A stretch of DNA of 64,000 bases from Psammoneis japonica (GCA_008632985.1 QPGO01000108.1:176476-240475), one strand, 5' to 3'. Shown: positions 890 through 49,260, numbered from the stretch's first letter. Numbers and translations are program-made. The notes: a model not told the origin generated them from the sequence alone.

Positions 890-3800
890 GCTGAAGCGAA
901 AAAATAAGAATGGATGATGAATAATAAATCCGCGTCGACGCACCCGAAGGAAGCACGTCAGAATTCGGCAGGTTTTCACGTTCAGTGTGGCAATAGAGGC
1001 ATTAATTTACTTATGGATAATGCATTACCATTTGATTTAACGACTGAACTATTACTAAAACGGTTGCAACTCGTAAAACTTCATTGAATATACATACGCT
1101 TATGTTAATTATCAACCCCATAAAATGTCTCTAGGCTTTTCATCAGTCAAAACATCTAATCTACCGCCCCACGGTAGTAAGTGTCGTACCAGTGAGGCTG
1201 TTGGCACCTGTCGTAATCGTAGTTTTCGGAATAAATGGGCATGCTACAAGGCATTCGTGAATGACGCTTATTGTCATAGTAAGCGGTCCCACGTTTCTTC
1301 AGGGGCAGTTGCTCTCTTCCACACTGCACTGAATCGAGTGCTGTCAAACCGTGACGGTTACATGTACGCGACTGGCGACTGCGACACTGCGACCTGCTGT
1401 GCTGCATGCGAGCGAGCACATGTGCACGACTTTCGTGGAGGCACATTGTGACTTTATTTGGGGGTTTTGGGCCATGTGAGAACGTTGCCATGTTGGGGTG
1501 CAGCTCAACACAATGAGAGTTCCTTTGTTGCCAGACTTTTGGTTGCTTTTGGTCTCTTGAAAAAAAAATGGAGAACCAGCTCCAGACGTCCTCTGGCCCT
1601 GTCTCGGTTGGGGCTCCATCATCAGAGCCAAATTTGGAGGGTTCTCCACCTGGCTGACCGGCAAGCTGGGGTTTGAGAAAAGGCAGCACACACATTTGTT
1701 TGTGACAAATCAGTCAGATTTGTTGCAAATTGCCCCATTTCATCATGAATTGGTGTGATCTGACAACCTGAGTTTGCCAACAACAAATGCCTGGGGTTGC
1801 AAGCCAACGCATTGTCTGCCCAGCCAGCACAGCGTGAAATGCAGCTGCCAGCTTTTGCACTCACAAAATGTTCAATTTGATGGCAGTGGAGTGTTGCCAT
1901 GGAGTTTCACATCAAGGGGGGTCATCCCTGCACCCACCCTAGAATTGCCGTGGCATTTGAATGAGGACATTTGCGGCACTTGTTTTTGAGTGCAAAAGTT
2001 GCTTGCGCTCACCCCAGTCATGCACAAAAACAAGAGCATCACAGGCACCATGATCAAAGCACAACTGTGATGGCAACATTGACATTTCTCCAAAATGCAG
2101 CGGTCCATCATCCTCAAACATTTGATGCACGTGCAACCTTTGGCACACAACGAACATAAAATGAATGAGAAATGGCAGACAGACCATCTCCAGTTGCAGA
2201 CTCATGGCTTGATGTTTTCACCACAGTGAAGCATGGTAAAATTCAGGAAAAATCATGCAAATCATGAGCTCTTTGGCCAAATTTGAGCTTGAAAAAAGCA
2301 GCAAATGAACCCCCTTGGAAAATGTGAAAAAGCACTTGCAGGCACTTTTGTCTGCCAAGCCGCCATCAACTGAAGCTTGCAGATCTCACTGCAGCTCACC
2401 ATGTGGTCTCCCTTGTTGTCTCAGTTGTCAAGTCCTTCTCTCACTTGCCATCTGCTGCTGGCTGCAATTGTTCCATGCAAATCTTCCCATTCTTGGCTCA
2501 GCCATTTGCTCACAACATCTCATTTGATTTCTGAGGCCAGCTCCTCAAAAAACTTGTTGGCTCTTGGCAACTGCCCCTTGCTCTTCCTTGGCATTTTGCA
2601 TTGTCTCTTGTGCCTGTGCCTTGCTCTGCTGGGCTCAAGTTGCTTGCTGCAAAGTGCTCAAGTCATCTTGTGCACTTTCTCTCTTTTTTGCTGTGACTTC
2701 CTTTTCCATGGGCCCCTTTTTAAGAGACGCTCTCAAGCTCATTCACAACATCTGTCAGAGCTGAAAAATGGCACAATGTTGGTGCCACTTTTGCATCTTG
2801 CTTGATGGCAATGCCACAGCCATGCTCACAGTGAAATTTGTCTTTGCGCAGCACATCTTTTTCCTCCAATTGGCTCACATCAAACGCGAATGTGACACTC
2901 AGAAATGCCTTTTCTTTGACATGGTCTCTCACCTTGACAATGTCTCTGCCAACCTTTTTGTGATCAACCATCTGCTTGCTTGGGTTGGTCTGTCTTTGAG
3001 CTGCAGTTGCTGTGTTTCTTTGCTGTTTTTTGTGTTGTGTCTTTGCCTGCATGCACTGCAGTGCTGCTTTGCATCACTGCAAGTGCTCCAGCAGATTCAA
3101 AATTGTGCCCCCAAGTTTTGGGGGCATTTCAATTGTTTGCAGCTGCATGTGCAAATGGCGCAAATTCAAATGTTTTCTTTTTCAGCAACCTGGCACCTGC
3201 TGCTTGTCATTGGCAAAGAGAGTCAGCACCAGTGATTCTGTGCTCACTGCACTGCACTGTGATTGGTCAGAAGAAATGGCCTCTTCTTCTTTGTCACCAG
3301 AGCAGAATCTTCAGAATCTTGCTGGGAAAAGGGTCTGGTGCTTCTTCCTCCATGCCGCAATTGTTGAACCAAGAAAGAGAGTCATCAAGGTGCTCAGGCA
3401 AATTCTGTGCACTGTCATTCCCATTCATCCATTCCTTGCAAGTGCACACTGAGGGGCACACAAATCTCACTCCGTTGACATCAGCAAAAATGAGAAAAGC
3501 AAAAATTGACAGGGTGAGATTCATGTGGAAGTCTCACAAAATCTGGAAAATGTTGTTGCTCTTGTTCAGAACTGAGATCTGTGATTGATGAGAAGCCAAT
3601 GTTCTTGACAAGTTCTTGTCAAGACTTGTGTCAAAGAGGTTTTGACAATCAAGCAAATCAGCATGGCAGGAAATCAGAGTCAGCAAAATTTGCTCCAACG
3701 ACAAATGTTGTCTTGAAAAGATGAGCTTTGCAAATGTTGACAACAGAACAGTTGCAAGTGACTGTGGTCAGTTTTTCATCTCAACAACAGCGCATGTGCA

Positions 3801-4329
3801 ACAAGCTCAAGTTGGTGACATGGTTCATTTTTGAGAACAACCATGCAAATTTGCCTTGTCAATTCTCTCTTTCATTGTCTGCGCGTGCTGCAGACAATTG
3901 ATTTGTGCTGTTTTCAATGTGGGTTTCCATCAACAATGACTTTCTGTGCAGCAAGTTCTCATTCTCTGCTTCCCCTTCCTTGCATTTGCTCTGTTGTTTC
4001 CCTTCATTTGCCCACTGTCTTTCACTGTCTGTGTGGCATCATCTCACTGTTTTTTGCTGTGCTGGTGTCATGTCATGCTCCAATTGGCACCCATGCTCTG
4101 ATCAGTGTCCAGCTGCCATGATGCATCTTTCAACAATGGCCAGCTTCTGTGCGTGTTGTTTGTCACCCATGGGATGCCATGCCAATGCCTGCCATGAGAA
4201 AGCAGAGAAGTCATGGGCTTCACATGTTTGGTTTGGCAACTGTTTCACAATTGTGCTGCTTGCTGTTGTTGGGCACTGCAAGGCTGATCTCATGGTGGCA
4301 TGGCAATGTTGTCACCAACAGCAACAGCA

Positions 4330-5770
4330 GACTTGACTTTCCCAAGTGCAAAGTGCAAGGATCCCACATCACAGCACCAACCAACCTGACAAATGCCAGC
4401 AGAGAGCACTGGCAGTGTTTGGCAGACCCCGGGCAAGACTTTAAGAGTGCAGTTGGGTGCTGCAAGGTTGATCTTGTGGTGCTGCGGCCTTGTGTCATGA
4501 TGTGCCCAACAGGGACAGAATTGAACTTCCAAATTCCTGAGTGAAAGGACCCCACAACGGCACCAACCAACCTCACAACTGCAAGCTGAGGACAGCATTG
4601 GCGGCCTTTGGTGGGCCACAGGTGACAATTTGAGAGCCATGGCTGAGCATTGCAAGGTTGATGTTGCGGTGTTGTGGCCCCATGTCACCTTGTCCCCAAC
4701 AGTGCCAGACTTGAACTTCCAGACTCCAGAGTGCAGGGATCCCATGGCAACACCGACCAACCCAACATCTGCCAGCAGAGGGCACTGGCAGAGTCTGATG
4801 GCACTGGCGGTGTTTTGCAAATCAAAGGCAGCACTTTAAGAACTGTGGCTGGACATTGCAAGATTGGCGCTGTGGCTTTGTGGCCCCATGTCACCTTGTG
4901 CACAACAGAAGCAGACTTGAACTTCCAAACTCCACAGTGGGAGGATCCCACAATGGTGCCAACCAACCTCACAACTGCAGGCTGAGGGCACTGGCAGTGT
5001 CTGATTTGCACCAGGTGTGTGAGTTCAAGAACTGTGGCTGGGCATTGCAAGGTTGATCTTGTGGTGCTGTGGCCCCATGTTTCCTTGTCCCCGATGGGAG
5101 CAGAGACTTGAACTTCCAAACTCCTGAGTGAAAGGATCCCATGATGGCACCAACCAACCTGACAACTGCAAGCTGAGGACATTGGCAGTCTCTGGTGGGT
5201 TCCAGGTGACAGATTGAGAACTGTGGTGGTTGAACATTGCAGGGCTGATCTTTCAGAGTTTTGGCCCCATGCCACCTTTTCCCAAAAAGCAGCAGACTTG
5301 AACTTCCAAACTTCAGATGGTGCAGGGATCCCATGAAGGTGCCAGCCAATCCAACAACTGCCTGAAGAGGGCACTGGTGGTGTCTGGAAGATCACAGGTG
5401 GCACTTTAACAAGGTGTGCTGGACATTGCAAGGTTGGCATTGTGGATTTGTGGCCCCATGTCACCTTGTGCACAAAAGGAGCAGACTTGAACTTCAAAAC
5501 TCCACAGTGGGAGGATCCCACGATGGTGCCAACCAACCTCACAACTGCAAGCTGAGGGCACTGGCAGTGTCTGATTTGCGTGAGGTGTGTGAGGTCAAGA
5601 ACTGTGGCTGGGCATTGCAAGGTTGATCTTGTGGTGCTGTGGCCCCATGTCACCTTGTCCCCAATTGGAGCAGAGACTTGAACTTCCATGCTCCAGTGTG
5701 AAAGGACCCCATGATGGCACCAACCAACCTGCCATCTGCCAGCAGAGGGCACTGGCAGTGTCTGGTGAAC
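4330..5770 (+). repeat. Tandem array of about 8 diverged ~190-bp units
   Basis: AGACTTGAACTTCCA-like anchor recurs at about 4330, 4517, 4707, 4913, 5104, 5294, 5483 and 5674. Segments at about 4880-5200 and 5450-5760 form a close higher-order duplicate. Confidence 0.9.
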
Positions 5771-7839
5771 ACCCAGGGCAAGACATCAAGACTTTTTGTT
5801 GGGCAAAATGCTGTTGATCTTTTGTTGAGGATTGAATGATCCTGTCTTTTCAATCCAGCAGTGCCACACAAAACCAAGATCACATGAGTGCCATGTCTGC
5901 CGCAGCTCCTTGACTCTCTCTGGTGCATCCACTCAAGCAGAGGAGCTGGCATGTTTTGTTGTGACTGCTGAAATCAAACCTTGAGGGGAGGGTGGGGGGC
6001 ATGCACTGCACTTGGCTCTTCTGAGGATTGCAGTGTGGATCTGGCTGAGTTGGAAAAAAGACTTGCACTGTGATGCAGAAGCCAAGGACTGAATTTCTGC
6101 AGTTGACTGCACTGGGGGAAGCAAAGGAGGTGACAAAGAAAGCCAAGAAAATTCCAAGCAATGTGGTTGACTCGACTGGACAAAACAATGCAGTGCATGT
6201 CAAACTCATGTTGGAGCCAAAAGCTGGCAAGCACAAGGATCTGCCAAAGACACTGGTCAAACAAATGGGGTGGAAGGTTTGCAAGATGCACAATGGAAAC
6301 CTGAAAAAGCATTTGCACAGCTTGAGTCCAACCCTGCCTCCAGGCCACACATTGTGCCACCAAAAATGCAAGCAATGAAAGACCTCATGTGCTTGTCCAA
6401 ATTCCAAGTCTCCTGCACCCAGACAAACCATCTGACCCAATCCTCTCATCCCCAGCAAGCCATGTCATCCTTGTCTCTGCTCAATTCAAGCCATGTCCCT
6501 CTTTGCACATGAAGAATGAGGTGGCACATGTCATGCATTGCTGGACCATCCAAGACTCTTTTTGTGGTGCCTCTCTGCACATCACTTGACAAGATCAGGA
6601 TTTACAAAATGAAACATTGCACATTTGATGGCACTGCAGCCATGATCATCCATGAACATCAACCACTGCAAACAAAATGCCAGATGTGTGACTTCAAACA
6701 GGCAGCCCCAGCGAAGTTGTCTGTGAGTCAAATGACACAACAAAGCATGGTTGTCAAGCTCAACACTTGTGAAAGTTGTGTGTGTGGAGATTTTAATTGC
6801 AAATGTGAAAACTGCAGTCATTGTTCATTGATTTGGGGGACGTCTTTGGAATTAAGACTGTCAAAGAACATTGCACTGCAGAATCTGCACCAAATCAGTC
6901 TGTCAATCAGTGAGATTGGGTGTGTGGGACCTCTGGACAGATCCTGCGTGTTTTCTTGTGCACACAAATTGTGCTGGGAAACCCCCAAATGCACTGGTGA
7001 TCAGACTGCTTTCAACGATCTCACTTCCAAAGATGCCCCCAGATTGTTCTTCTTGTCAAGTGCAGAAAAATGTTGCAAATGAGAAAGGAAAAATTTTTCA
7101 ATGCAAGCCATGTTGCACAATGGACCAAGTGGATCTTTTGTGAGGTTGCCTCACTCTGGGCGCTCTCTGCTGTGTGTCGCACCAGTGTCAGACTTGGCCA
7201 AAGTGAGAAAAAAATGACAGGCAGAAGCCACATGGAAGTGTCATGACAAGGACAAAAAAATTGTGGTGCAAGCCACTTTGCACAACAAACCAAGTGGGTT
7301 TGTGGATGCCTCACAAGGGGAGCTGCCCTGACAACTGAGCATGATGTCAACACTCAACATGAAATTTTCAAAAAATTCTCCACACTGAAGTCATTGAGCA
7401 ATGAACACATGATTGCCAACAGAAAAGGAGGCAATTTTGCAAACACATCTCCTCCTCCACACTTGGAGCACATCATTTCTGCTTGAAGTGATGCTGCTGG
7501 GCAGTTGTGGCTGTTGTCACATCTGAGTCAAGATCTGAAAGATAAAATGTCTTGGTTGTGGGGCAATGGTTGCATGCACACTGAACAAAAATGGGGCAAC
7601 AAAGAAAAGAAAAAGCAGCGCGGGCCACTCAAAAATGTCTCGCGTCAGTCGCAGCTGACACCTTGCACACAAGAAAAATGCGTGGTCATGCTGAAATGCA
7701 CACACAATGTCATGCAAGAGAGTGGTCAAAGCCAGTGACTTTGCGGGGGCTCAACTGAAATGTCATCTGATCTAAGGCATTTTGATCTTTTGATCAGACA
7801 ACGTTTCAATTGATTTCCTGAGAAGTTGACATTCAGATG

Positions 7840-7968
7840 TGGACAGACAGACAGACAGACAGACAGATGGACAGATGGACAGATGGACAGATTGACAGAT
7901 GGACAGATGGACAGATTGACAGACAGACAGACTGACTGATTGACTGACTGACTGACTGACTGACTGAC
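7840..7968 (+). repeat. Compound tetranucleotide microsatellite (GACA/GATG/GATT/GACT)n
   Basis: Directly visible. Confidence 0.95.
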
Positions 7969-9217
7969 AATGACTGTTTTTTGTTCTGTCCTGCAAAATG
8001 TCCTGCTGAGAGATTTCGGCATGTGGGAAGAATGAAAGAGGTGGCCGCCAGAGGCGGCCCAGAAGAATAAACTGAAAAGGAGAAAAAGGAGAAGAGAGAG
8101 AGGAAAAGAAGGAAAAAGGAGAAAAAGGGAAGATGTTGCAGGGCTGTCAACTTGCGGCCCTTGGCTGGGCTTCTGCCTGCAAAGCAGCTTGTCTGTGACT
8201 TGAGGTGCTGTGGTTTTACATGCTTGACAGCAAAGCTCCCACAGCACGCTGGAGAACTGTGCAGTTGTGTGGCATCTTTTGTGAGGAGTGTTTTGCTGCC
8301 AGCCCATCATGGCTTTTTGGGCAGCCTGTTTTCCAAGCCTTGCCCTGCCAGCTTTGTGGCCACTGCTGCGGATCTGTGTCTTCTTTGTTCTCCAAAATTC
8401 AATGCACACTTTGGCGGGTTTGGCCCCACTGTGTTCAAACAATTCTCTGAAGTTTCCAATCGAGAAGATGCAGTGTCATCCTCTTCAAAAGATTTTTGCA
8501 AAGATCCCTGGCAGCAAGCACTGGCCTTCCCCACCCATGCTTTCAGAAGTGCCTGTCTTGACAAATTCACAGCATCTCTCCCAAAGCATCTGTGGATGCT
8601 GCGCCCAAATTTTGGCCTCATGCATCACAAAATCTTGAGAGAATTTGCGAGATTCACCCCATCACGCACCGCCACCTTTGTGGATTTCCAGTGCAGCCAT
8701 GGCTTCTGCAGCAGGCTGTTGACAAACATGCAAAGCAAGTTCCCACTGGGACCTCAAATTGACCTGCAGCCTTCTTCATTCTGGCTGCACCCTCCCTGCT
8801 TGAATTCTGGGTGGCCAGTTGAGCAAAACCTGGCTCTGTCTGTGTTTTTCAGTCCATGTTTCTGGCTTTGTCACATGTGGTGCAAAGTGCCCTCAGGAAA
8901 ATGCTTGTGGTTGTGCTTGCCCAATGCTGTCCCATCAGCCAGTGCCTTGTGGCGCAGCCCAGTGCTTTGCTTGCTGGTCTGGTGTCTTCAAGAAGCAAAC
9001 CACACACCCCATTCTTGCCCAAAGAGGGGGGGGCAATCAGACCGATGCACATGCCTGAAAGACACCCTGTGTCATCAGGAGGTTCCACGATGAGAAAACG
9101 AGTGAGACGAATGAACAACACCACATCAGCTGCAACGTGTGAAAAAGTGGGAGCAAGATTTTGCGAGCGTGTCTTGGTTGTTGCGAGTGTTGCGCGAAGC
9201 CTTGTTGATGTCGAATC

Positions 9218-9385: not shown

Positions 9386-11010
9386 GCTCTGGTGTGTTTT
9401 TTATGCTTCTGACTTGAATTTTTCCGTACGCAATGACTGTGAGATCTGCGACAATTCCCACTGCAACTGCCAATGGGCAAGCATGCATTTCAGTCAGAGA
9501 TGGGCTGACATGCACAGCAAGAAATCCAAGACTGCACTCCCACCTGCCCTGCACAACTCTCAAGAAAGACAAGACATTGTTCAAGAGCTGTGCTGTGCAA
9601 AAAAATGTTGAAAGTTGTTGAGTGGGTGGCCCAACAGCTGCACTGCAAAATGATGCAAAATGCCACCCAAGTCGTGCACCAAAAGAACACACAGCGCATC
9701 TTAAAAAATGTCAATGTCACAGCTCAGCAGCAGCGCAAGGTCCCACCCAGAGCCAGAGCATGCTGCCTGTCCTTCCCTTGTTTTGGACTGCAACTGTGAC
9801 CTGTGCTTTAGATGACAGCCCTTTTTTGCCATTGTTGGCATGGAAAATGATGTCAAGACCATTGTTGCATGTGGCATTGCTTGCTTTGTGCCAGCAAAAC
9901 CTGTGGCAACAGGGCCGCTGTCTCTTTGGGGCACTGCAAGCAACAGGCAGACAGGAGCTCAGATGAAATGAACAACAAATCCAGCCATGGTCACCAAGAA
10001 TTGGTGCAATCCAGCAGAAACATGCAACGCAGCAATCAACAGGAAATCCAGAATTGCACATTGATTGACTGTGCGGCCCGCTGTTTTGGCAATGCGCAAC
10101 AGTGACAGGCTCGCTCAAACCCACTGCATGAAATTCTGCATGGGAGGGACACCATGGATGAGCAATTTGACCGGTGTTTGTCCGCCATCCAATTCCTCTG
10201 TGGTTTTTGTGGAACAAAAAAGAAACCACCAACCAGGGTGACTGCACTGTTGCGATGGCATCAATGTTGAATGCAGAGCAGCGGGCATCATGCTGGTCAC
10301 ACCTGGAGTGCTCATTCAAGCACTGTTGCATGTGGCATGAAGATTGCCACCTGAATTGTTCAATTGTGTTGAGCATTTTGCTTTTCCTGCTCTCATGCAT
10401 TTTCACATCCATTTTGGCAAAAAGCATGGAGGCACCAAGCAAGCTGTTCTTGCCAGCAGAAGCAACAATTGGAGGGCACCTGCTGCTGTGACTGTGCAGG
10501 TGATCAGGCATGGAGGCAACTCAGCTGAAGCCAAACCTGCCAGTGTCCTTCTTGTCCTCCCTCCATCCACAAAGACAAAAAGAAAGTGGTGGGGAAAATG
10601 ATGGCAGACACAAACTGCAGTGGGTGCAGAGAGGAACAGACAGAGGAGAACAGATGGCAAAAGCAGAGCCAAGAATGTTTGTCCAATGGTTGGGTCCATT
10701 GAAGCAGATGTGTTTTCTTCCAAGGTGTCCAGTGCACTCATCACTTGTGTGGATGGCTTGCACCAATCACCAACTCCTGCTGATGAAAGCCACTCCTCAT
10801 GCAGGGAACAATGTTTGCTCCAACAAGGACATCTCTGCCAAGTCCCAGACACAGATGCTCTCCAGGATTTTCAGATGCTCCGCCTCTGTTTGGTGCTGCA
10901 TTGAGCACAGCAGAGATCACTGCTGTCAACAGATGATCAACCACATCTTCAAGATGAAATTGGTCCATGGATTTCAGTCATTTTCCTGCATCTGCAACTT
11001 GCAAAACAAA

Positions 11011-11523
11011 ACAAAACCTGGTTTCAAGTGCTGTCACACCTTTGTCCAGCAACAAAGGAACACTCACATCAACACTTGTCAGTGCCACAACAGAAGAGGT
11101 GCTTTCACCTGATGGAGCAAAGCACTTGATTGGCCAATGGAGACAAAGAAGGTTGTTGAGGACCAATGGGTGTGGGTGCAAGCAGTTCGGCGGAGCATTG
11201 TCACAGTGATTGTTGGCAGTTGGAACTTGTTGCTGACGCACGCAGAACTTCTGCTGGAATCCATGTGGCAAATTTCTTGAGTCTGCAGAAAATTACAAAA
11301 AAGATCAATGAGCATGTGAACCATGAGGAGTCAAGATCAGTCATTTTCCACTTGGAAACATCACTTGACACGCTGAGACAAGGGTGCGCCATCACTGTGG
11401 TTGAAATGGGCAGAATGGTTTCAGGAGACCCAGCACAGTGCCATCTGAGAAAGGCCACATCAGCACAAGAAGGTGCACAGAAACACGTGCAGGGGCTGCT
11501 GGTGCACATTTGCCTCAAAAAGT
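11011..11523. mobile_element. TIR-less long-TSD element, copy A (short, apparently internally deleted)
   Basis: Both ends are homologous to copies B and C. Flanked by GCAACTTGCAAAACAAA (10994-11010) and GAAACTTGCAGAACAAA (11524-11540). Confidence 0.7.
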
Positions 11524-13115
11524 GAAACTTGCAGAACAAACGAGACATCCCTGACCCCAACCCTTGCTGCTGGCAAGACTGCCCAGCATCAAGCAATGAG
11601 ACAGGGGTGGATCACTTCAGGTCAGAGTTCAGTGCAATGAAAGAGGAACTTGGAAACTTCAACAATGACTTTTAAGAGGCTGGTCACCAGAGAAGCTGGA
11701 TGATGATTCTGCCTTTTCTGGCTCTTCACGTCTTTCCCGCTCCCCGACAGCAGCGGACACTTTTTCAATCTGGCAGCTTCAGGTGAGATGGGTTTCCTTG
11801 CTGCCTCAGCCACAGATTTGCATGGCGACAATGACTTGCACTGCAAGCAGCTGGGTTGCATGAATTGAGGCTTGCTTCAAGGATTGAGCAAAAAGACACT
11901 TTGGTTGCAGATGCCACGTGCTCATGATCAGCTCTGTGCGGCCTGCCGCACAGCTCATGATTTGCACTTCAAAACAACACAGTGTCAGTTTCCCTAACTT
12001 GCATGCACCCACACACACTCTGTGTGTTGCTGCTGCACACACTGCCCCTTGCTGCAACTTCATTTGGCAGCTGGTTGGTTGGCGGAAACCTCGTCTGAGC
12101 CCAAGCGAATCTGGGAGCAAGCTTGGCGCTCATCCGTGAGACAATGACAATTTTTCCCTGGTGCCACCTGACTCCTCCGAGGAGCTTTCAAACATGGCCT
12201 CCTTTCCACAGTTTGTCCAATGAGGCATTGCAACTTCTCATCCGATCGAACTGCTTCAGAAGGCGGTCAAAAAGCACCGACACGGCAGAGGTGCATAAAT
12301 CGTCTGTTGTCGTTCGCACATGTTTATGACCAGAACATGTCCTGCCGTACCGCATACCTCTAGTAGCTAGGCCCTATGCCCTACAGTACAGTGTGGTGCG
12401 GTAAACCTTCATCACAACGATGATGATTCCATCCAACGTGCGCGCCGGCACCTCCCTCGTTGAAGCACGAGCACTGTAAAGTGATAGTTCAGTAAAGTGA
12501 TAGTACCGTAAAGTGACAGTAGAAGCAATAGCGTTTATACGCATTTATAGCCATAAATGATACATTAAAATTTTAAAAAATATCGAGCATAAGAAATTCA
12601 AAAGAGAGATTTTGAAATCCCGTCTCCTCAATTTTTTGGTCACAATCTGTTTTTCAGAGAGAAATACAGCATGAGAAAATTTGCCGAGGCTTCTTCATGC
12701 ATAATGAAGTTCTGTGTGCAATCTTGGTGCAATCAGCTCCATCTTCACTTTTCCTTTTATTGGTCCATGTATGAGATGATTTCAGATTGAGAGGCAGGAT
12801 TCTCCGCTGGAGAACAGGATTTGCTGTTGGGGCCTGCTCACAATTCACATTCCAACATCTAGCGACAACAGCAATAGCAACATTCTGCAGTTAAAGGATT
12901 TGCTTCTCAGCACCTCCCCTTGCAAGCAATACCACGCGGTTCACATTGGAGGTGAGAAGCATGTGTCAACTGGTTTGAAGGTAACAACTTCGCAGTCTTG
13001 TGCACGGCAACTGTCGATTTGCTCCCACGTTGTATGCAGCACTCCCGCTAACCGGTGGTGCTTTGTTATCTCACCTGTCCAAATGACTCAATGTAGCTCT
13101 TCCCACCAACATAAA

Positions 13116-14400: not shown

Positions 14401-17400
14401 TGAAGAAGTGCATGCCTGGGCATGTGATTAATGACATTTTATAATTCATGATTCCTGAACCACTTAATGCAAAAACAGAATACCTAGCACAGGCAGTTGA
14501 CGATTGACACAAGGGGTCATGAGAAGGAGGGGAAATGCATGACAATTGGTGCGGAACACGGTGCGTTTTTGCAAAAGTGCAGTAGAAATGAAAGCATGGC
14601 ACTGTCCCCTCGTGACACAGAGAGCCATGCTCATAATGTGAAACATCATTCAGTGGTGGGCTCACCTGTCCATGCATTGTGTGGCTGCAAATGAAGGGGA
14701 AAAACCAAATCTAAATTTAAAGTGCTGTCTCACTCCTTTGCCAGCTGGGCTGGCACCGGGTAACCCACACTTCCAGTGCACAGCCAAGTGCAGCAGAAGT
14801 TGAAATGGACCAGCCAGAATGGGCATCACTTTCTGGTGATGCCCCACCAAAGCAACTTGCACCATGAGCACTTTGCCTTCTTGATGCTTTCCTTTGGACA
14901 CACAGTTCAACCATGGCAACCCAATTTAGGATCCTAGAAGCAGCAAAAGTCAAATGGTTTTCAGCTGAATTCAGCAACACTTCTGCCCTTGGCTGAGTGG
15001 TCTTGTCATCTGTTGCAAATGGCTGTGAGTTCTGCTTGTGTGTGCTTGCGCTGAGATGATTTTCCAGTGTCAGCATCATGCCCATGTTCTGTTGCATTGT
15101 GTTTTCCCCACAGTTCCCACTGTGATTTCTAGGTGTGGGTGCCCATCTGCACTGCCCATGTTGGAGGAAGATGGTTTTTCTTGTGATGCTGCTCCAACAA
15201 TCCAGTTTTGTTGAGATGTGTTGCTTGAAAGGTGTTCCACAAAGTTGAATGTTGACCACCAAAAACTTGGTGCCAACCATCATTGGTCTGTTCTTGCCAT
15301 GACAGATGGAGCACAGGGAGAGTGTTGGTGTCATGCACCATCACATCTTGAAACCACATTTCCATGGACATCAACACAAACAGAAAATTGTGCAAAGGAG
15401 GCATTGTGTCAACATGGTCACAGTGCTTGCAGAAACCATGCAGAAAATTCTGCCTCCAAGCTTTGTTGTCAGGGCATCTGAGGATGTGATCTTGACCCTC
15501 CATTGGATGCTCAAATGCCAGGCAGTGATGAGGTTGCACTGGACTTCATTGGTTTGCAATCTCATTCATGGGAGAAGCTTGTGAATCAGCTTCACAGTGG
15601 ACACATGTTTTTTTTTAAATGTGCCGACAAGAGAGGCATGCGTGAACCAGTCAATCTCATTGGTGATGGACTCTTCATGCTGACTGCTCTGTTTTAGATG
15701 CACCCCAGCAATGCAGGGGCCATGGCGGCACAACAAACTGTTGACTTGGGTCCAACAGCAACTGTGCCATCCGTGACCCTGAAATGTGCCTGACAGTCAG
15801 GGAGCAGAAAAGCTTCTGTCACATCAGGTGGGTGCTGCTGGCCTTGATGCCAACATCTGCCAGTTCATCAGCTCTGATGTTCACCTTGGCATTGAGAGCC
15901 ATTGACTTGAGTCATCCAGCAGCAACTGTTCCATCTGTGAGACTGAAATGTGCCTGACAGTCAGGGAGTGGAAGAACTTTTGTTGCATCAGATGGATGCT
16001 GGCCTTGATGCCAACCCGCCACTTTGCCAGCTCTGACATTAACCTTGGCATTGAGATGGAGAGAGGCAATGGGAGCACGTCAATCTTGGCGTCTTTTTGC
16101 CTGTTCAGTGGTGGGAGCTTGACCAGGTGAGGATGAGTGGAGGAGAGATTCAAAGGTGATGGATGTCTGGAAGATTTTGTTGATGACATCTCAGTCTGAC
16201 ATTGAGACATTGGCAGCATGGTGTCAAAGGTTGAAATTGTTCTCTGCATTCTTAGAAGGATCAATGGAAGGGTGAGAGCCAGACAAACAGAGGAGAACTT
16301 CAACCAGAGCCCTGTTGTCACACCAGTTTTTGACACACCTGCATGGCAACATGCCTTGCAGAATTCAAGGAGGTGACCCACAAAACACAAAAGGGAAAGG
16401 ACACCATGTGCCTCCACATGACAGGAGGACAGCACACATCCAAATGCTGGGCTGTCTGTGACAGACCATCCAAACATGGCACTCTGATGATGCACTGATC
16501 CATTGCTGCCAGCATTGAGCCACTCTACAACAAAGAGATCAATCAGGTCATGAAGGGGTGGGTGAAAAACTGTCTTGGAAAACAAGGCCAACTTCCACAC
16601 CGGCAAGGCTTGAAGACATTCTTTGAATGAGTCAGGGAGAAAAAGGGGAAGCTCAACATTCAATTTCAATCACTGTGGGTGGAATTGCCAGTGACCCTTT
16701 GAAATCTGAGAAGATCTCTGCTGGAAACAACTCTTTGGATGGTGTTGGGAGGGTTTCAAGTTGATGCACTGAAGTCACCTTTTCATTTTGAACCAAGAAA
16801 ACATCAAATCCCAAGGGAGAGCAAACATGTGGACATGACTCAGCTGGAGACTGACATGCTGCTGCCAGCATGTGCATTCTGGAAGGTGGGGTTGGCCAAT
16901 CTCCCAAAGGAGCATGCAACCAGGTGAAGTCAGGGCAACACAGCATTTCACAGAGGCAGATCCAGGGACCCCAAGCATGGTGGCAACGTTTCTCCTGTTT
17001 GACATTGTCAAGGGTGCTGACGCTGCTTGCAAAAGTTAGATCACCACAGATCTTGGATTTGTCTGGAGCCAGTCCATTGGCAAGTGCTGTGCCTGACACT
17101 GCAAGGACCTTGATGAGGCAGAGGTGGCAGCAATTGATCCACCTCATTTCCAAGGAAGAGAAAGCTGCAGATTCCAGCACCAAATCCATCAGGCGTGGGT
17201 TGTTGTCACATTGGAGAGGCAACATGCTGGCATTCAACAGCGCCATTGTTCTGCCAATGCAGTTGAGAAAGGATCAAACAGAAGCAAACCACAGCAACTC
17301 ATTGCAAGGGTGTGGGGTGCTCACAACTTGCAAGAAACTGACACCAGCTTGTGGTTGCAATTGATTGTTGCATGCAACAGCAATGCACACAGCAGCGCAG

Positions 17401-18140
17401 GGTTGGTCATCTGCAAGCAGCTGCTGAGTTGTTGAAGTTAAGCCACACCCTGCTCTGCATCAAGGGACCAAAAACTGCCACCACCAAGAGACTGTGGGCT
17501 GCACAGCATGAGGTGCTTGGTGTTTCTGTTGCAGCCACACTTTGCAAAGACAACTTGCGCTGCACATTGTTGAATCTGCAGGAGAGCTTTGGTGGCAAAG
17601 TGAGAACCACCAAAGGACAAAAGCAGCCCATGGCAAGCAGCAGGTGCAGCAGCATCTCCAGGACTTGGATCAGTCCAGCAGAGTGGATCAAACAAACGAG
17701 GCCTTCCCATCACTCTCACTTGGAGCTGCTTCTTGAAAGTGCCTGCGGGAGAACTGCAATGGCTGAGAGTTTTGTGGGGAGCACAGGGAGACAACGAGTG
17801 CTGCACCTTGAGGTGGAGCAATCAGCACAGAAATTTTCCACACATGGGTCTTGGTTGTGTGGGTGGAGGCTGGGTTCATTGCACTCAGAGAACTCCTGTT
17901 CGGCGGTGTGGAAGGAACATTCAGGCAGCAGCTCCAGTTTGTGTCCACTTGCATGGAGAAGATCACACAAGAGCTGGCTGGGTCATGCTGCAATTTTGTG
18001 GGCAAGCTCTTCAGCATGGGGTTGAGGGAATGCATGAAAGTCGTTTGCTTGTTTGGACATGTCATCCACCACATGCCCATGGGCACAGATGTTCAGTTGA
18101 TGAGAGCCATCAGGAGATTGTTCAAAGAATGTGCCACAGG

Positions 18141-18378
18141 CAGGCTTGGGGTTTTAGGGGGGAGGGTTTCAGCAAAAAGGGGAATCCCCCAGATGAAAGA
18201 AGCGGGGGCCCAGTTTTAGGTGAGCACTGTAGAACTGTGCTCTCAGTGGCACACAGTGCGCACGTCGTCCCACAACGCATGCTGCGTGGCACATGCACAG
18301 TGACAGCAGCTCACAACCCATGTCTTCAGACAAAATGAAGTGGGCCCCCCCTGCTCCCCCCTAAAACCCTGAGCCCAG
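18141..18378. mobile_element. MITE (hAT-like) inserted in the LINE RT
   Basis: ~24-bp imperfect TIRs CAGGCTTGGGGTTTTAGGGGGGAG / CTCCCCCCTAAAACCCTGAGCCCA; 8-bp flanking direct repeat GCCACAGG (18133-18140, 18379-18386). Confidence 0.75.
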
Positions 18379-19129
18379 GCCACAGGCCTTGGAGTCAAAC
18401 ATGTCAAAATGAAAGCTGCACAAGTTGTTCCAGCAGAAAAGAGAGTTGCCACTTCCTTGGCCAGTGCTGCAGATTGGGGATTCCCGGCTGTGAGAGTGCA
18501 AGGCTTTGGACAATCCCAAGAGGGTCAGCAACCAGCAACAAGCAAGATGGGTGGTGGAGATTGTGGTTGTCACAGCAAAGGGATCCATGCCTGGACTGAC
18601 AGATGAAATTGCCATGAGCACTGGAAGACTCTGATTGCAGCAAGAGGGGCAGTTGTCATTGCTTGCAATCAGGGTCTTCTTGAAACTCTGGAGATCTTGA
18701 GCATTGACACTTCTAAAAATGCTGGAGTTTGGGCACAAAGGAAGGCATGAGTGCTGTGTGTGCCGGGTTGAAAAGACAATGTCACTCCATGCATGTTTTG
18801 CACCAAAGCTTGCCAGTTGACACTTGTCATCAGGTGAAAGTCTGCCTTGCAGATGTTGGTCACACACAGCCAAAGTGTCTTGTTGTTTCCTGGTTCCTTG
18901 AAGATCATGATGCTGACAATGTTGTGTCATCAATCAAAGGAGTGTCCCTCCTGCTTGATGGTGCAGTTCAAAAGGTTCAAGCAGATGGTCTGCAGTGTTT
19001 CCTGGATTCTGTCTGATTCCAGATGTTTGCAAGTCGGACTCCCTTGTGCGTCCTTGGCCAAAGAATGAAGATGATTCACGCACATTGCCTTCCAATGTTT
19101 AAAATGAAGACCAGACTTGACAGAAGCAG

Positions 19130-19499
19130 AGGTTGGCTCTGACCACAACTTGAATTTTCCATGGATGTCATCTGTTGTGAGGAAGTTTGACACCAAAATG
19201 GGGGTGTATCATCACAGGTGTTTGACAAGCAATGCTGCAGCTTCAGTCATGCCAAGTGTTTCACAATCACCATTGAGAATGAGCTCAGCCACAATTGTGC
19301 TGCCCTCACAACCCAGGTTGGCTCTGACCACAACTTGAATTTTCCATGGATGTCATCTGTTGTGAGGAAGTTTGACACCAAAATGGGGGTGCATCATCAC
19401 AGGTGTTTGACAAGCAATGCTGCAGCTTCAGTCATGCCAAGTGTTTCACAATCACCATTGAGAATGAGCTCAGCCACAATTGTGTTGCCCTCACAACCC
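19130..19499 (+). repeat. Near-perfect 185-bp tandem duplication within the LINE
   Basis: 19130-19314 vs 19315-19499; I see two differences, including TA (19207) vs CA (19392). Confidence 0.9.
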
Positions 19500-34600: not shown

Positions 34601-36250
34601 GACAGCAGTTGATGGCAACAGCAACATGTTTGCAAGCCACATGGCAAGATTGGGGTCAGCAAGTCTGAGCCATGTGGTGCCAGTTGGCAAGCCATGAAAC
34701 TCAAACACTGCCCCAGGGCACTGCCACATGCTTCTCAGCTGTATCTGTTTCTCTGTGTCTTTGTGCTTGCATTGTTTCCACTCAGCATTGCCAAAACCTC
34801 TCAATGTTGTGGAGTTGAGGGCAACAAATGTTGTGTGCTGCTGTGGTGCTTTGGACTGGCAGCATGTCACCACCTCAAGCTGAAATTTTGAACCTTTTCT
34901 CCCATTTTTGACCCAGCACTGACCAAGGAGGATGGCATGGGCCAGAGGCAGTTGTGCAAACCAGCACCCTTGGCCTGAACACCAGGGTGGCTTGGCATGT
35001 CTAAAGTCTTTGCAGGTTTGTGTGTGGCTGAGTCTCAGGCAAGTTCTGTGCTGCACCAGAGCACTCTGTCCTCCATTTGTGGCACTTTGTTGACCAGTGC
35101 TTTGTTCCTTTTTCTTGAACTTCCCAGAGTTTCTCCTGCCTTGGTTGCCCCCCCCCCCCCCCCATTCTCACACCTGTGCTTGAGCAATGCTCAGAAGTTG
35201 CACCTCTTCTTGGCCCAGCAGCAAGGTGGGGTCAAGGTCAGGAGGAAGATGGGCACAAGCCAGGCTGGGCAGTTGCCGTTGGCAAACACTGCATGGTGTG
35301 GGAACTGTGGGATGCACACAAGGATGACATTCACAGGCATGGTCACAAAGCTGTGAAGTCACAAGCCAGGCTGGGCAGCTGCCATTGGCAAACACTGCAT
35401 GGTGTGGGAGCTGTGGGATGCACACAAGGATGACATTCACAGGCATGATCACAAAGCTGTGAAGTCCCCCCCCCCCCTCCGGCCCCAAGACATGGAGGCC
35501 AAAGTCACCTCAGCCATCAAACCCCACAAGAATGATGGCTGTCTGGCCAAGAACAAGTCTCGCCTTTTGTTGGACTCACACTGGAGAAACTTCTTCAGCA
35601 GCACACAAGAACGGCATGCACAGGTTTCAAAATTGTGATCTCAACAAGAGCAAAAGAACCAGCACTCAAGTCCAGGATTCTGGGTGCTCTCATTGTCTTC
35701 AGCCTGGCTTTCAGGGGGATGCACATGACTGCTGGCTGCCTTGGCATGGCATCTGAGCTGGCTCACTTGTTGCCAGAGTTGCTGGGTGGAGTTGCAACAG
35801 CACCCAAAATCATGCAAAACCTTTGTTTCTTTGTCATTTCGGCTGCTGCCAGCTGGTCATTTTCTGCAGCACCGTGCTGCAAGTGATTTTTCATGACAGA
35901 GGGCTTCTTCAAAGGTTGACATTTGACTCTTTTTTTTTTCCTTGGCTGCAGCCATGAGGAGGGCAGTGTGGGGTGGCCATCCTGGTGTCCTTTTCTCTCT
36001 TCTGTTCCCCCCCCCCCCCCTCCTCGTGCAATGGATGTCATTTTCCTTGGTGCGAGCCACGCACGCACACGTGGACAAATTTGTGCTTACTCCACTCTCT
36101 CTTGGCCCTTTTTCTGCTGCTCGACACTGGCAGAGAGCAACAGCAGAGGTGTTGCTCTAGCTGCTGGCTCTCTCTCTAAGCTCTCTGCTCTCCACTGGCT
36201 ACAGCAGATGGAGAGAGTGGCACAGCTGCTAACACAACACTGGCAGCCAC
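31630..36250. mobile_element. Degenerate repeat/TE-derived block, CpG/TpA-depleted, with local duplications
   Basis: Composition as in the other blocks. Duplicates at about 33450-33560 / 33790-33898, 35256-35360 / 35361-35467 and 32320-32610 / 34430-34700. Confidence 0.6.
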
Positions 36251-46844: not shown

Positions 46845-47229
46845 TACATTGGTTGTTGAACACCATTCTCTGGGAGGATCGTTCTAGGGTTGCTGGCGGT
46901 CCGGTAGATGCATGGTGATCGTTCCTAATCGATCATTTCCCTTCTTCTGGTGGGTCCAACTTTTTCTCTAGCAACGCTTAACATGTGAGTCAAGCCTTTC
47001 TCTCGCACGTCAGCTACGTGCGGCTTCCTTACTATGCTATCCAAGGCATTGTTCATCGTTTAAGCCAACCCGTCTTCGTGGCATTGCAAATGTGCTCTGT
47101 GGCGCCCACACCATCAATGCCGGCTTCCTTGCTCTCATCAATTCCCTTTTTGCCTTGAAACATCTAGTTGGTGCCTTCTTTTTCCTTTTCTGTCAGTGGT
47201 TCCACCGACACGTTTTTGTTTATGATGCT

Positions 47230-49260
47230 GCAGAGTAGCCTGCACTCCAGCTTGCTAAGAGCTTAGTAAACAACTGCATTCAACAGGTGCTCTTGTGCCA
47301 TCATACAAGATTGTGATCAAGGGCGTCCCCTTTTGACCAAGTGTCAACCATTTTTTCTGTGACAAAGGCAGGCTCAAGAGCTTGCTCATCACTCACCAGG
47401 TGTGCAAACCATTGTGAGGTTGTGAACTGCATTGAAATTTTTTTGGAATGACATGGTCACTCCTGGTTGCACGAAACTCCAAATGCAAGGACTGTGAGCA
47501 ATGATGTCGACAGACACATTGAGAGCAGCAGCAGCACGTGTTGACATGTGCATGGTGAGCAGCCACAATGTCTTCAGCATGTTGTCAAGAATCAAAAGAG
47601 TCTCTCATGCCAAGCAGCCAGCACTCTGCCCAAACCCCCCTTCAACCCAACTGGGGTTGCAGCTCTCAATGTGGCATCCCACTGGCTTTGATCTAATTGT
47701 GCCATTCTTTTCAAAGCTTCTGTGAGGAAAATCCATGTCATTTGTCTTCAAATCCTTCTCTGCACCCACTTCCTTGTCAATTGAATCCTGCCACAGGGAA
47801 TGCAACTGTCTTTGTTAACTTTGACAACCTTGTGCAGGACTCAGAAGTGTGCATGATCTTGCACACTTGTGAGCTCACTTGTGACAGTGCTTGTTTGCCA
47901 CAGCTGTGAATTGTCAGTGCTTCTTGAAGGCACAATAAATCCATCAAGCAAAGACCAGCTCGTCTCCAATCAGTGGGCCCTTGCCTGCTTCCCAACCAGC
48001 TCAATTGGGCTTGATTTTTTCAAACCCATTGGCAGCTCCTGTGTCACAGTGCTGTCTTTTCAATGTGTGCAAAGGGTCCACCCTTCCATCCCTTTGCAGG
48101 TTTGCATGTGAAGTGGTGATGCTCCTTGGCCAGCTCAGCTGGCTTGATTTGTTTGAACCCATTGGCAGCTCTCATGTCACAGTGCTGCTGTCTTTTCAAC
48201 ATGTGCAAAGGGTCCATCCCTTGGCAGGTTTGCATGTGAAGTGGTGCTTCCCTTGACAACGCTGGGAGCAGGTGTTCTCCTTTTGAGCTGCACGCTCATC
48301 AGTTTTTGTCACCCCAGCTGTGGTGGTGTCCAGCAATGAGCACTGGCAGCTGCTTTTGTTGTTGTGCTGAGCAGCTGTGCTCTTGGCATTGTAGCCACAC
48401 AAGAGAGAAAATCAGTCATTGAAAAAAGAGCCCACAGCTCCTTTGTTTGAGAAAAAAGAGCAACAAAAAAGAAAGCAAAGTGCAGGGTGCAGCATGACAT
48501 GGACAACACACCTCTCTGTGCACTCTGCAAGTGGAGTCTGGAGAGCAGGCATGGAGGCATGCGTGCACCTCCGCAATGCACGATTGGATGCAGCAATCAA
48601 GCCTTGACTTGTCATTGCTCCTCACATTTCTTTTTGAGAAAGAGAACAAGCATTGACTCACAACTTCATTTGAGAAAGGAGAATGACAAGAAAAGCAAGC
48701 ACATTTTGCAGCAATGACAAAAACAATGCCAAAGCCAACAACCACCATCACCGCCAAAGAAATCTGGCAGGAACTGATTGAATCCAAGAAAGCTTGGCAT
48801 CACAATGCTGTCATGTGTTACATTGTTGTGGCAGCCATTCATGCAGGGCTTCTACAATCATCTCTGTGGCACCGATTGGTTCAAAACATTGGCACTTCAG
48901 TCATGGGGTGTGTTCTTGCTGCTCAGACTTGTTGCTGGATTGCGGTGCACATGCATTTCCATGTTCAATTTGTGACGCGGAAGCCAGAAAACTTGGAAGT
49001 GGGCCACCTGATTGGATGCGTCCACCACTGCTTCAACCCTGTGATTGTGGCTGAGCACTGGGAAGTTGCTCATGCAGGATTCTTCCTTAAAGTCCTGGGT
49101 CTGTTTGCCATGTCTGAAGCATTTTTTCCTTGTTGGCGTTTGGAGTGCATGTGTCTTCCAGGCCAGCTGGGACGTTGTTTCCTGGCTCACATTTCATTCT
49201 CTTTGCTGGTGACATCTGGTCATTGTTGCACATGAGTGGTGTCATTGGCCCATGTCTAAG
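47230..49260. mobile_element. Degenerate repeat/TE-derived block, CpG/TpA-depleted
   Basis: Composition; local duplicate at about 48020-48120 / 48157-48247. Confidence 0.55.

Follow-up and report, generated by a model that had tools for sequence, protein, structure and literature searches.

The window analysed here is a 64,000-nt stretch of DNA from Psammoneis japonica, containing genes, among them an MFS-transporter gene and GH16 duplicates, and discrete blocks (30,204 nt in total) with very few CG and TA dinucleotides (Table 1). Block borders were set by a two-state model on pyrimidine-purine steps; they agree to ~100 bp with the coordinates given in a first-pass annotation of the same DNA, and the model added one further block, block 6. 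The borders, which that annotation had described as sharp, are indeed step-like, with the change contained in a single bin (15 pyrimidine-purine steps, ~60 bp). At 31637/31640, for example, the share of CG plus TA drops from 7/15 to 0/15, and only a few bases separate the end of block 3b from the MFS-transporter open reading frame (ORF; 27542). On the two sides of the leaky insert in block 4, CG or TA makes up 26/445 and 18/526 steps. Block 6 is broken by a 48-bp patch (60616-60663) in which CG and TA are kept, and its 60251-60625 portion is free of TA with CG partly retained.

Table 1. Features of the window and supporting read contigs (positions counted from the first nucleotide of the window).
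Feature	Position	Strand	Description
Depleted block 1	1436..9086		CG or TA at 81/1820 pyrimidine-purine steps, two-state model
189-bp tandem array	4233-5764		in block 1
8-bp microsatellite	7842-7969		in block 1
Depleted block 2	9431..12080		CG or TA at 36/656 steps, two-state model
Depleted block 3a	14589..20332		CG or TA at 75/1370 steps, two-state model
Read contig	17039-18374		depth 59, 2 mismatches (block 3a)
Leaky zone between blocks 3a and 3b	20333..20857		less-decayed copy of a ~40-50-copy repeat
Read contigs	20844-22914 and 23543-25857		depth 62-69, 1 mismatch each (block 3b)
Depleted block 3b	20858..27535		CG or TA at 70/1567 steps, two-state model
Depleted block 4	31640..36051		modelled as 31640-33485 and 33862-36051
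LTR-like direct repeat, 5' copy	32314..32604	+	paired with 34426-34708
Short ORF with CX2CX4HX4C zinc knuckle	33311..33469	+	Pfam zf-CCHC, E 7.6e-4, 19.9 bits, cut-off 20.8
Very high-copy element	33451..33897	+	two 110-bp direct repeats around a segment with a tRNA-like GGTTCGAAACC box (authors' reading)
Leaky insert in block 4	33486-33861		two-state model
LTR-like direct repeat, 3' copy	34426..34708	+	paired with 32314-32604
Depleted block 5	47271..49253		CG or TA at 26/485 steps, two-state model
Depleted block 6	60143..61101		two-state model and windowed o/e; absent from the first-pass annotation

Dinucleotide counts confirmed the double erasure of CG and TA in these repeat-like diatom blocks. 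CG occurs 312 times in the blocks (observed/expected ratio, o/e, 0.175; range quoted 0.15-0.18) and TA 92 times (o/e 0.046), with TG (n = 3429, o/e 1.79) and CA (n = 3371, o/e 1.82) in excess, while in the 33,796 nt outside the blocks CG (n = 1849) and TA (n = 1222) have o/e values of 0.95 and 0.54, and TG and CA of 1.18 and 1.20. Near-absence of both dinucleotides in the blocks and their abundance in neighbouring genes, as first claimed, are thus borne out (o/e 0.18 for CG and 0.05 for TA, against 0.9-1.0 and 0.5-0.6 in flanking genes and intergenic DNA). Non-block DNA free of long ORFs (11,403 nt) has a CG o/e of 0.90 and a TA o/e of 0.59, so that by the proposed comparison with intergenic DNA, TA is ~12-fold lower in the blocks. 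The loss of TA in the blocks is at least as complete as that of CG. Furthermore, pyrimidine-purine steps are equally frequent in the blocks (7204 in 30,204 nt, 0.2385) and outside (8088 in 33,796 nt, 0.2393), indicating that the change consists of transitions inside that class. The other dinucleotides shift by 11% or less, and G+C content is 48.7% in the blocks and 48.1% outside.

Alignments between repeat copies place these transitions in situ. Aligned block repeats contain 63 TG<->CA pairs, whereas none of the seven other double-transition classes exceeds 12 (range 0-12); in control gene duplicates the numbers are 3 and 0-5, respectively. In the tandem units, TTTAAGA, TTTGAGA and TTCAAGA occupy the same columns, as do CACG, CATG and CACA. 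CG is aligned with TG or CA in 69 pairs, and the partners of TA are CA (7), TG (5) and others (6). At the (C/T)GTAGAA motifs of the leaky zone between blocks 3a and 3b, sister copies have TGCAGAA, CACAGAA, CGTGGGA or ATGTGGC. Within 33578-33762, where 40 of 456 variant rows were listed, other genomic copies have TA instead of the TG or CA of the window at no fewer than 7 places, and CG at no fewer than 3; among those rows, CG is the family majority at at least 3 places where the block has TG or CA, and the TA-type letter is found in a share of 0.15-0.66 of the other copies, so that subfamily structure could explain some of these sites. We therefore consider it very probable that CG and TA were both converted in place, and these sister-copy swaps uphold the proposal that two transition processes, each with its own sequence context (CG->TG/CA and TA->TG/CA), acted on discrete non-genic blocks. 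A native composition, by which these repeat families or foreign DNA would always have been poor in CG and TA, could explain why the youngest high-copy zones are TA-poor though CG-rich, but TG<->CA swaps between copies, the retention of TA and CG in the same columns by some copies, the conserved pyrimidine-purine total and the TA and CG held in the loose ends of other repeat copies (read contigs) all speak against it, making it highly improbable.

The blocks are non-genic and, in part at least, repetitive. One repeat family has members at 11100-11510 (decayed, block 2), 20260-20890 and 26465-27080. The second of these spans the leaky zone, which has a word depth of 2260-3200 against a baseline of ~60, keeps many CG and has few TA beyond four (C/T)GTAGAA motifs, three of them with CG; its 250-bp windows have CG o/e values of 0.70-0.74 and TA o/e values of 0.06-0.07. 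The high-copy element in block 4 (word depth ~30,000 versus ~60; direct repeats 93% identical) has likewise retained CG and lost almost all TA. Its GGTTCGAAACC box resembles that of a tRNA in our reading of the sequence; ARAGORN and Rfam searches of the element found no gene. The LTR-like pair in the same block is 69% identical, and most of its differences are TG<->CA swaps (13); the two copies may represent true LTRs, and read contigs connecting 32375 to 34538 resemble a solo form at some other genomic site.

With regard to coding content, the claim that block ORFs are nearly Tyr-free and rich in Cys and His proved correct (Tyr 0.1%, Cys 6.7% and His 4.8%, versus 2.5, 2.4 and 2.5% in gene-region ORFs). 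None of the 124 block ORFs of at least 90 aa had a credible Pfam domain, two hits being below the cut-off and chance-like; nor had any of the 150 ORFs examined out of 157 in the 62-89-aa range, or three read-through plus-strand frames of 20858-27410, and a phmmer search with one block ORF returned no hits. Simulated full erasure of CG and TA alters just 17.6% of residues, and yet no transposon or viral protein domain was recognised; the blocks are therefore older, more degraded or non-coding. The short ORF at 33311-33469 is a possible Gag remnant, with its zf-CCHC score just below the cut-off. The label "transposable element" given to the blocks by the first-pass annotation thus holds for parts of them, namely the repeats, the LTR-like pair and this sub-threshold CCHC knuckle, but block ORFs have no Pfam transposon domain that would extend it to the rest.

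Read contigs assembled from exact words (canonical 31-mers), 1-2.3 kb long, match the blocks with 1-2 mismatches, and word depth is 54-69 in the blocks and 60-63 in genes. Since the contigs pass through blocks and genes at equal depth, a strand-wise base-calling artefact, which would split each site into two half-depth paths, is ruled out. The reads come from one sample of one study with unrecorded platform and are perhaps the assembly's own data, and at least 3 TA surviving in the assembly are read as TG or CA, as miscalls or faulty polishing of modified DNA might also produce. However, the full depth across the blocks, the clean TG<->CA swaps between sister copies and a patch with the same CG/TA-erasure signature on a metagenome contig of another diatom leave such a technical origin with very little probability. 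Among the isolated assembly-versus-read differences listed inside blocks, 3 of 6 are a TA in the window and a TG or CA in the read, with TA positions making up ~0.6% of block bases, which gives only a hint that TA conversion is ongoing or polymorphic.

The tetranucleotide check agreed with the earlier remark that surviving TA is mostly confined to a few contexts: TTAA (24), TTAG (13), CTAA (10), GTAG (9) and CTAG (6) account for 62 of the 92. GTAC is absent from the blocks and occurs 101 times outside; ATAT occurs once versus 97 times, and TTAA 24 versus 51 times. TAY has thus suffered much heavier loss than TAA, TTAT being essentially gone and TTAA half retained, and the dependence on the two flanks is multiplicative. 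Action on both strands, as previously suggested, is reflected in the near-equal numbers of TG and CA, which follow each other in random order along the blocks, with no strand-coordinated runs seen (lag-1 autocorrelation 0.011). This strand symmetry and the differences between the LTR-like copies disfavour ADAR-type editing via RNA fixed by retrotransposition, which would leave a sense-strand bias and two identical LTRs, and hence the RNA route of the ADAR-like enzyme named as a candidate. As to the order of loss, some 250-bp windows combine a CG o/e of 0.63-0.77 with a TA o/e of 0-0.12, and the reverse is seen in no block window; TA loss is ahead of CG loss in young high-copy repeats, an order that could partly be due to TA-poor master copies.

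The other candidate of the first-pass annotation, error-prone repair of the Pol eta type at WA (WA->WG), would be a collateral effect of the frequent T:G lesions that 5-methylcytosine leaves on deamination, much like the second phase of antibody hypermutation. It would tie TA loss to methylated CpG-rich DNA, in keeping with the coincident borders of both arms, and could allow TA loss to outpace net CG loss. Nevertheless, AA/TT is undepleted in the blocks (1.07 times its level in non-coding DNA, versus 0.07 times for TA), and with the pyrimidine-purine total conserved, few A->T or A->C changes can have occurred; moreover, 230 of 231 mutations described in the chlorarachniophyte Bigelowiella natans (see below) are transitions, on TpA only. 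Pol eta-type repair is accordingly disfavoured and very unlikely.

Two further explanations dispense with an adenine deaminase. Over-correcting repair of T:G mismatches, analogous to very-short-patch repair in E. coli, by a T:G-specific glycosylase concentrated on methylated DNA would turn replication-error T:G mispairs at TpA into C:G and thereby TA into CA or TG. This fits the outcome seen: transitions alone, equal on both strands and independent between sites, in blocks that are presumably methylated. Among the substrate contexts of thymine DNA glycosylase TpG.T ranks second, and the flank dependence of the two dinucleotides is opposite: GCGC is the best survivor and GTAC is gone, while TCGA is most depleted and TTAA survives best. 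Over 10 flank classes, though, the rank correlation of CG and TA survival is weak, a trend only (-0.40, p 0.25). On a flux argument, TG->CG should run at least equally fast and rebuild CG, the o/e of which is 0.15-0.18, and to our knowledge mammals combine such repair with heavy methylation without TA erasure. We regard T:G over-correction as unlikely. Oxidation by a TET/JBP-type dioxygenase, of T in TpA and of 5-methylcytosine in CpG, would place one enzyme class at both self-complementary pyrimidine-purine steps and so explain their common borders, with 5-formyluracil mispairing with G to give T->C, which at a palindrome looks the same as A->G. Against it, the flank preferences of the arms differ on the pyrimidine (R-T-A versus T-C-G), B. 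natans has the TA arm with no reported CG arm, and this analysis gave no sign of the enzyme or of the oxidised base in diatoms; we deem it improbable.

The overall best explanation, to which we give about an even chance, combines CG decay with TpA hypermutation of the B. natans type by an adenine deaminase in diatom repeats. In the first arm, CpG->TpG/CpA is the expected product of 5-methylcytosine deamination in methylated repeats; the blocks are presumably methylated. CpG methylation of transposable elements is 84% in the diatom Thalassiosira rotula. The second arm, TpA->TpG/CpA, is limited to the same blocks with shared borders, acts on each site independently and on both strands alike with a preference for TA plus pyrimidine, and leaves AA, CA and GA untouched. 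Its most likely chemistry would be enzymatic deamination of A in 5'-TA to hypoxanthine, read as G, by a putative CDA-fold deaminase aimed at silent chromatin, either ADAT2/TadA-like or of the deaminase-Tudor type in stramenopiles, from which stramenopile-specific deaminase-SAM-Tudor proteins have been described. TadA/ADAT2-3 and ADAR are known as RNA enzymes and prefer A after U or T. The natural substrate of ADAT2/TadA-like enzymes is U33-A34, and that of TadA, UAC, matches the TAY preference in the blocks, while the block signature is at odds with the 3'-G preference of ADAR and with its use of an RNA route. An adenine deaminase as the agent of TA loss, first suggested from this DNA and also the hypothesis for B. 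natans, fits the data and is a serious possibility at somewhat less than even chance; TA being palindromic, A->G is indistinguishable from T->C. More tentatively, diatoms, and perhaps SAR protists at large, may defend their genomes with a DNA adenine deaminase targeted to chromatin. It would edit the A of 5'-TA, most readily in TAY, on either strand of foreign DNA and silenced repeats, and would outpace 5-methylcytosine decay. If so, the joint action of this deaminase and CpG methylation would in the end strip such DNA of both CG and TA.

Among known systems, fungal repeat-induced point mutation (RIP; RID/DNMT4-type) is similar in its repeat-associated transition hypermutation, sharp borders and destruction of coding capacity, and diatoms have DNMT4 proteins related to RID. 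RIP, however, changes C->T only and mainly converts CpA to TpA, and therefore creates TpA and uses up CpA, whereas in the blocks TpA is erased, CpA is doubled and an A:T->G:C arm is added. A TA arm for which neither 5-methylcytosine decay nor fungal-type RIP can account, as initially claimed, thus stands. RIP acts before meiosis on duplicated sequence; the GH16 duplicates (80% identity) are unaffected, perhaps being too diverged to test targeting by duplication. Very-short-patch repair in E. coli depletes CTAG, a case in which a 5-methylcytosine repair system turns a TA-containing word into CA/TG as a side effect; it is bacterial, bound to Dcm sites and modest in its depletion, and the CG gain that it predicts is not seen here. 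Methylation-driven CpG decay shares with the blocks the conversion of CG to TG/CA in silenced repeats, with CG kept in other copies (the 69 aligned pairs above), and TCG-targeted hypermutation in Pucciniomycotina (PMC3318451) recalls TCG(A) as the most depleted CG context; both cover the first arm only, as neither, from what is described, removes TpA.

The closest parallel is B. natans. Of 231 mutations that its mutation-accumulation lines acquired in two integrated viral regions, 230 are A>G or T>C changes located on TpA, arising at ~6e-7 per site per generation, a de novo rate ~1000-fold over background in living lines; the genome has 124 TpA-poor, CpA+TpG-rich clusters, and the preprint proposes an adenine deaminase, noting DNA activity for few A-to-I enzymes (bioRxiv 10.64898/2026.01.13.699255). 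Our literature search found no report of TpA hypermutation in diatoms. The statement that the phenomenon was undescribed in diatoms therefore stands for diatoms, but its TA arm had been described in this alga in 2026, and the first interpretation as a whole is partly supported. The present case differs in its host, a diatom, in its targets, which resemble repeats more than recognisable viral genes, in the near-complete CpG loss, for which the preprint reports no counterpart, and in its saturation (TA o/e 0.05 versus 0.45 in the NCLDV region of B. natans). It also has a TA flank preference, of which the preprint reports none, and is known from sequence and not from de novo mutations. Shared by both are TpA->TpG/CpA transitions in discrete regions with the rest of the genome normal, read here as an end state, the long-term TpA-poor, CpA+TpG-rich signature and the membership of both hosts in the SAR supergroup. 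By this analogy the second arm is probably the same process as TpA hypermutation in B. natans, and the block signature suggests that TA is mutated by a targeted process of which there is one previous report, in an unrelated alga.

Counts of all 16 dinucleotides at 1-kb scale, together with finer segmentation, almost exactly recovered the blocks that the first-pass annotation had described as stripped of both CpG and TpA, and the segmentation of the window added one at 60.1-61.1 kb. The blocks total 30,204 nt and contain 312 CG (observed/expected ratio, o/e, 0.175), 92 TA (0.046), 3429 TG (1.79) and 3371 CA (1.82), versus 1849 CG (0.95) and 1222 TA (0.54) in the remaining 33,796 nt, where TG and CA stand at 1.18 and 1.20. 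The part of the non-block DNA that lies outside the long ORFs (11,403 nt) keeps its CG (554, o/e 0.90) and TA (479, o/e 0.59), indicating that the contrast is not one of coding versus non-coding sequence and that TpA is lower in the blocks than in intergenic DNA. Fungal RIP is excluded as the cause, since it creates TpA. The four pyrimidine-purine steps sum to 7204 of 30,204 in the blocks and 8088 of 33,796 outside (0.2385 versus 0.2393), which is the outcome predicted for pure transitions inside that class; G+C is 48.7% and 48.1%, respectively, and the remaining dinucleotides in the blocks lie within 11% of non-coding DNA. Pol-eta-type synthesis, one of the sources of TA loss initially considered, is disfavoured, as AA is untouched in the blocks and the constant pyrimidine-purine total leaves little scope for transversions.

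Coordinates of features in the window and of the matching patch in metagenome contigs
Feature	Position	Strand
Blocks nearly free of CG and TA	1436-9086, 9431-12080, 14589-20332, 20858-27535, 31640-33485, 33862-36051, 47271-49253, 60143-61101	
8-bp microsatellite (GACTGACA), 16 copies, within the first block	7842-7969	
Block ORF searched with phmmer	19976-20740	-
Less-decayed repeat copy	20260-20890	
CG-keeping, TA-poor windows	20376-20750, 33626-33875, 60001-60625	
TA in the assembly, TG or CA in run X1	22536, 33295, 34743	
End of the fourth block	27535	
Start of the MFS-transporter long ORF	27542	
GH16 gene, first copy	30085-31551	-
LTR-like direct repeats	32314-32604, 34426-34708	
High-copy element	33451-33897	
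Segment of the high-copy element compared among copies	33578-33762	
Very large gene	36419-46844	+
GH16 gene, second copy	50243-51532	-
532-bp patch, metagenome contigs of another diatom	L013:1481-2012 = L015:8446-8977	

The block borders are sharp, as originally reported: the share of CG and TA among pyrimidine-purine steps changes as a step rather than a gradient, switching inside one 15-step bin (~60 bp). Only a few bases separate the end of the fourth block from the start of an MFS-transporter gene's long ORF, and hypermutated DNA therefore adjoins a normal gene without a transition zone. ORFs in the blocks are nearly free of Tyr (0.1%) and rich in Cys (6.7%) and His (4.8%), bearing out the first description. 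With 747 TGA, 40 TAA and 24 TAG (64 for the latter two together), TGA is the sole stop left in number, and hence the blocks contain many long spurious ORFs.

The depleted sequence is present in sequencing reads. In run X1, whose 31-mer words match the window, 0.83 of the sampled words of positions 27001-37000 were present, and 31-mer contigs of 1-2.3 kb were built along the blocks with 1-2 mismatches, at a word depth of 54-69 (60-63 in genes). A base-calling artefact in which a modified site is read differently on each strand is ruled out by these full-depth, unbranched contigs of canonical k-mers. X1 shares its sample and study with the other two runs with matching words; it could be the very data from which the assembly was built, and no platform is recorded for it. 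In a second run, X2, coverage is confined to genic bins and the 33.0-34.3 kb repeat, the blocks being uncovered, which is not taken here as a sign that they are silent. No RNA run was listed among those with matching words.

Comparisons among copies provide several lines of evidence that the CG and TA changes were made in place. When block repeats were aligned together, 63 TG-opposite-CA pairs were found, whereas the seven remaining classes of double transition had 0-12 pairs each; in a control alignment of the GH16 gene duplicates, the corresponding numbers were 3 and 0-5. Swaps of TG and CA between copies must reflect the same ancestral CG or TA resolved in opposite directions. Splitting the swaps into CG-derived and TA-derived ones was abandoned, the two-copy model (46 + 6 predicted, 75 observed) being too crude. 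The two LTR-like direct repeats likewise differ mostly by TG/CA swaps, and these differences, along with strand symmetry, disfavour an RNA-level ADAR route. Read contigs join one LTR-like repeat to its partner, which suggests that solo forms exist elsewhere in the genome. In a 189-bp tandem array, TA, TG and CA occupy one alignment column, and CG, TG and CA others. The less-decayed copy carries (C/T)GTAGAA four times, three of them with CG, where sister copies read TGCAGAA, CACAGAA, CGTGGGA or ATGTGGC. For the high-copy element, other genomic copies have TA at at least 7 places and CG at at least 3 that are TG or CA in the window (among 40 of the 456 variant rows), at shares of 0.15-0.66, to which subfamily structure may contribute. 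Among six listed isolated differences within blocks between the assembly and the full-depth contigs, three pair an assembly TA with TG or CA in the contigs, and another pairs CA with CG. As TA positions make up ~0.6% of block bases, this TA bias hints at ongoing mutation or polymorphism; the three sites themselves could be allelic differences, recent mutations or assembly errors.

The genes flanking the blocks are diatom genes, including one for a zeaxanthin-epoxidase-like protein that shares 84-90% identity with its counterparts in many diatoms. The GH16 glycoside-hydrolase genes are 80% identical to each other in DNA, and their closest relatives, barring some unnamed sequences from metagenomes or transcriptomes, are bacterial (Clostridia, Planctomycetes-type; 44-60% identity), which suggests that GH16 was acquired from bacteria and duplicated afterwards. 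The very large gene comprises three overlapping long ORFs with MYND zinc-finger and UvrD-type helicase domains. The blocks contain repeats, including the tandem array and the LTR-like pair, a tRNA-like box and a CCHC knuckle of sub-threshold score (19.9 bits; cut-off 20.8). Among 124 block ORFs of at least 90 aa, Pfam matches were limited to two, DEFB136 and CUB, both below the cut-off and chance-like; 150 of the 157 shorter ORFs (62-89 aa) and three forward frames of 20858-27410 read through stops had none, and so the 274 ORFs and three read-through frames yielded no TE or viral domain. The block ORF searched with phmmer against 1.84 billion protein representatives had no hits. Since simulated complete CG and TA erasure of the window's own genes altered just 17.6% of residues, hypermutation alone does not explain the lack of matches, which leaves non-coding repeats or far more advanced decay to account for the blocks. 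The initial label of transposable elements is only partly supported, parts of the blocks being repeat-derived; blocks of this kind, with no Pfam hits where tested, defeat homology-based TE annotation. The high-copy element has a word depth of ~30,000 (~500x single-copy) and a pair of 110-bp direct repeats flanking the segment that holds the tRNA-like GGTTCGAAACC box at ~33.6 kb. Rfam and ARAGORN called no RNA gene, including at this element, so the box is a reading of the sequence only, and the element is possibly a SINE-like repeat.

The order of TG and CA along the blocks is random (lag-1 autocorrelation 0.011; runs-test z -3.2 to +1.5), and therefore no strand-coordinated tracts were found by either test. 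Surviving sites cluster at up to 200 bp, and no nucleosome-like periodicity was seen among them. TA survival depends multiplicatively on its flanks, with factors of ~0.7 for A, ~0.4 for G and ~0.1 or less for C or T 3' of the A: GTAC occurs 0 times in blocks and 101 outside, ATAT 1 and 97, TTAT 1 and 90, and TTAA 24 and 51. For CG the extremes are reversed (GCGC survives best, TCGA worst), the rank correlation with TA over ten flank classes being -0.40 (p 0.25). Three windows keep CG (o/e 0.63-0.77) with TA at 0-0.12, and the reverse pattern was found in no block window; TA loss thus seems to outpace CG loss several-fold. The CG-keeping windows fall, by word depth, on high-copy repeats, which are presumably young, although TA may have been scarce in their master copies from the start. 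Over-correction of T:G mispairs by a VSP-like activity is an attractive account of TA loss, but under it CG should be gained no more slowly than TA disappears, and no such gain was seen. Thymine oxidation is a possible but unlikely source of TA loss.

The initial observation is confirmed, and its interpretation, a RIP-like defence with an adenine arm, is partly supported: two transition arms acting in place and distinct from RIP are retained, and the Pol eta variant and an ADAR route through RNA are disfavoured. The change of CpG to TpG/CpA would be the expected decay of methylated CpG in blocks that are presumably methylated; diatom TEs are reported to be heavily CpG-methylated (84% in T. rotula), and diatom DNMT4 to be related to fungal RID. 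The change of TpA to TpG/CpA needs a separate, specific and fast process, for which TpA-specific hypermutation as in Bigelowiella natans appears the best fit. TadA acts on a UAC context in the anticodon loop, which resembles the preference for TA followed by a pyrimidine (TAY) in the blocks. Stramenopile-specific deaminase-SAM-Tudor proteins have been described (PMC3239186) and are further candidates. The flank rule, border sharpness and order of loss narrow the enzyme search, and such blocks could lead to natural enzymes that edit adenine in DNA.

If true, this would be a natural targeted A:T-to-G:C DNA mutator, the mirror image of RIP and APOBEC-type defences, so far known from a single 2026 preprint on one chlorarachniophyte, the sole report of TpA hypermutation found in our literature search; the search found no report of TpA hypermutation in diatoms or of combined CG and TA erasure in any organism. 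B. natans gained 231 new mutations in two integrated viral regions; A>G or T>C changes made up 230 of them, all on TpA at ~6e-7 per site per generation. Its genome has 124 TpA-poor, CpA- and TpG-rich clusters, and an ADAT2-like candidate was proposed (bioRxiv 10.64898/2026.01.13.699255). Such a rate would clear TA far faster than 5mC decay, in agreement with the loss of TA before CG in the blocks. In metagenome contigs of another diatom, a 532-bp patch directly upstream of an orthologous gene (89% identical) has CG 0.24, TA 0.10, TG 1.77 and CA 1.73; the signature was absent from the other 78 of 80 metagenome loci, a weak test on 428 kb of mostly short contigs. The targets in B. natans are viral inserts, whereas those in P. 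japonica look like ordinary repeats, suggesting that the process targets both and operates alongside CpG methylation, and a saturated footprint in a diatom suggests that it is widespread in SAR algae. The available preprint text does not mention CpG, diatoms or flanking context (bioRxiv 10.64898/2026.01.13.699255), and the preference for TAY over TAA, the ~60 bp borders and the loss of TA ahead of CpG are absent from it. We file the blocks as a further case of the very recently described B. natans kind, in which the diatom host, the saturated signature, the accompanying CpG erasure, the flank rule and the sharp borders are new.
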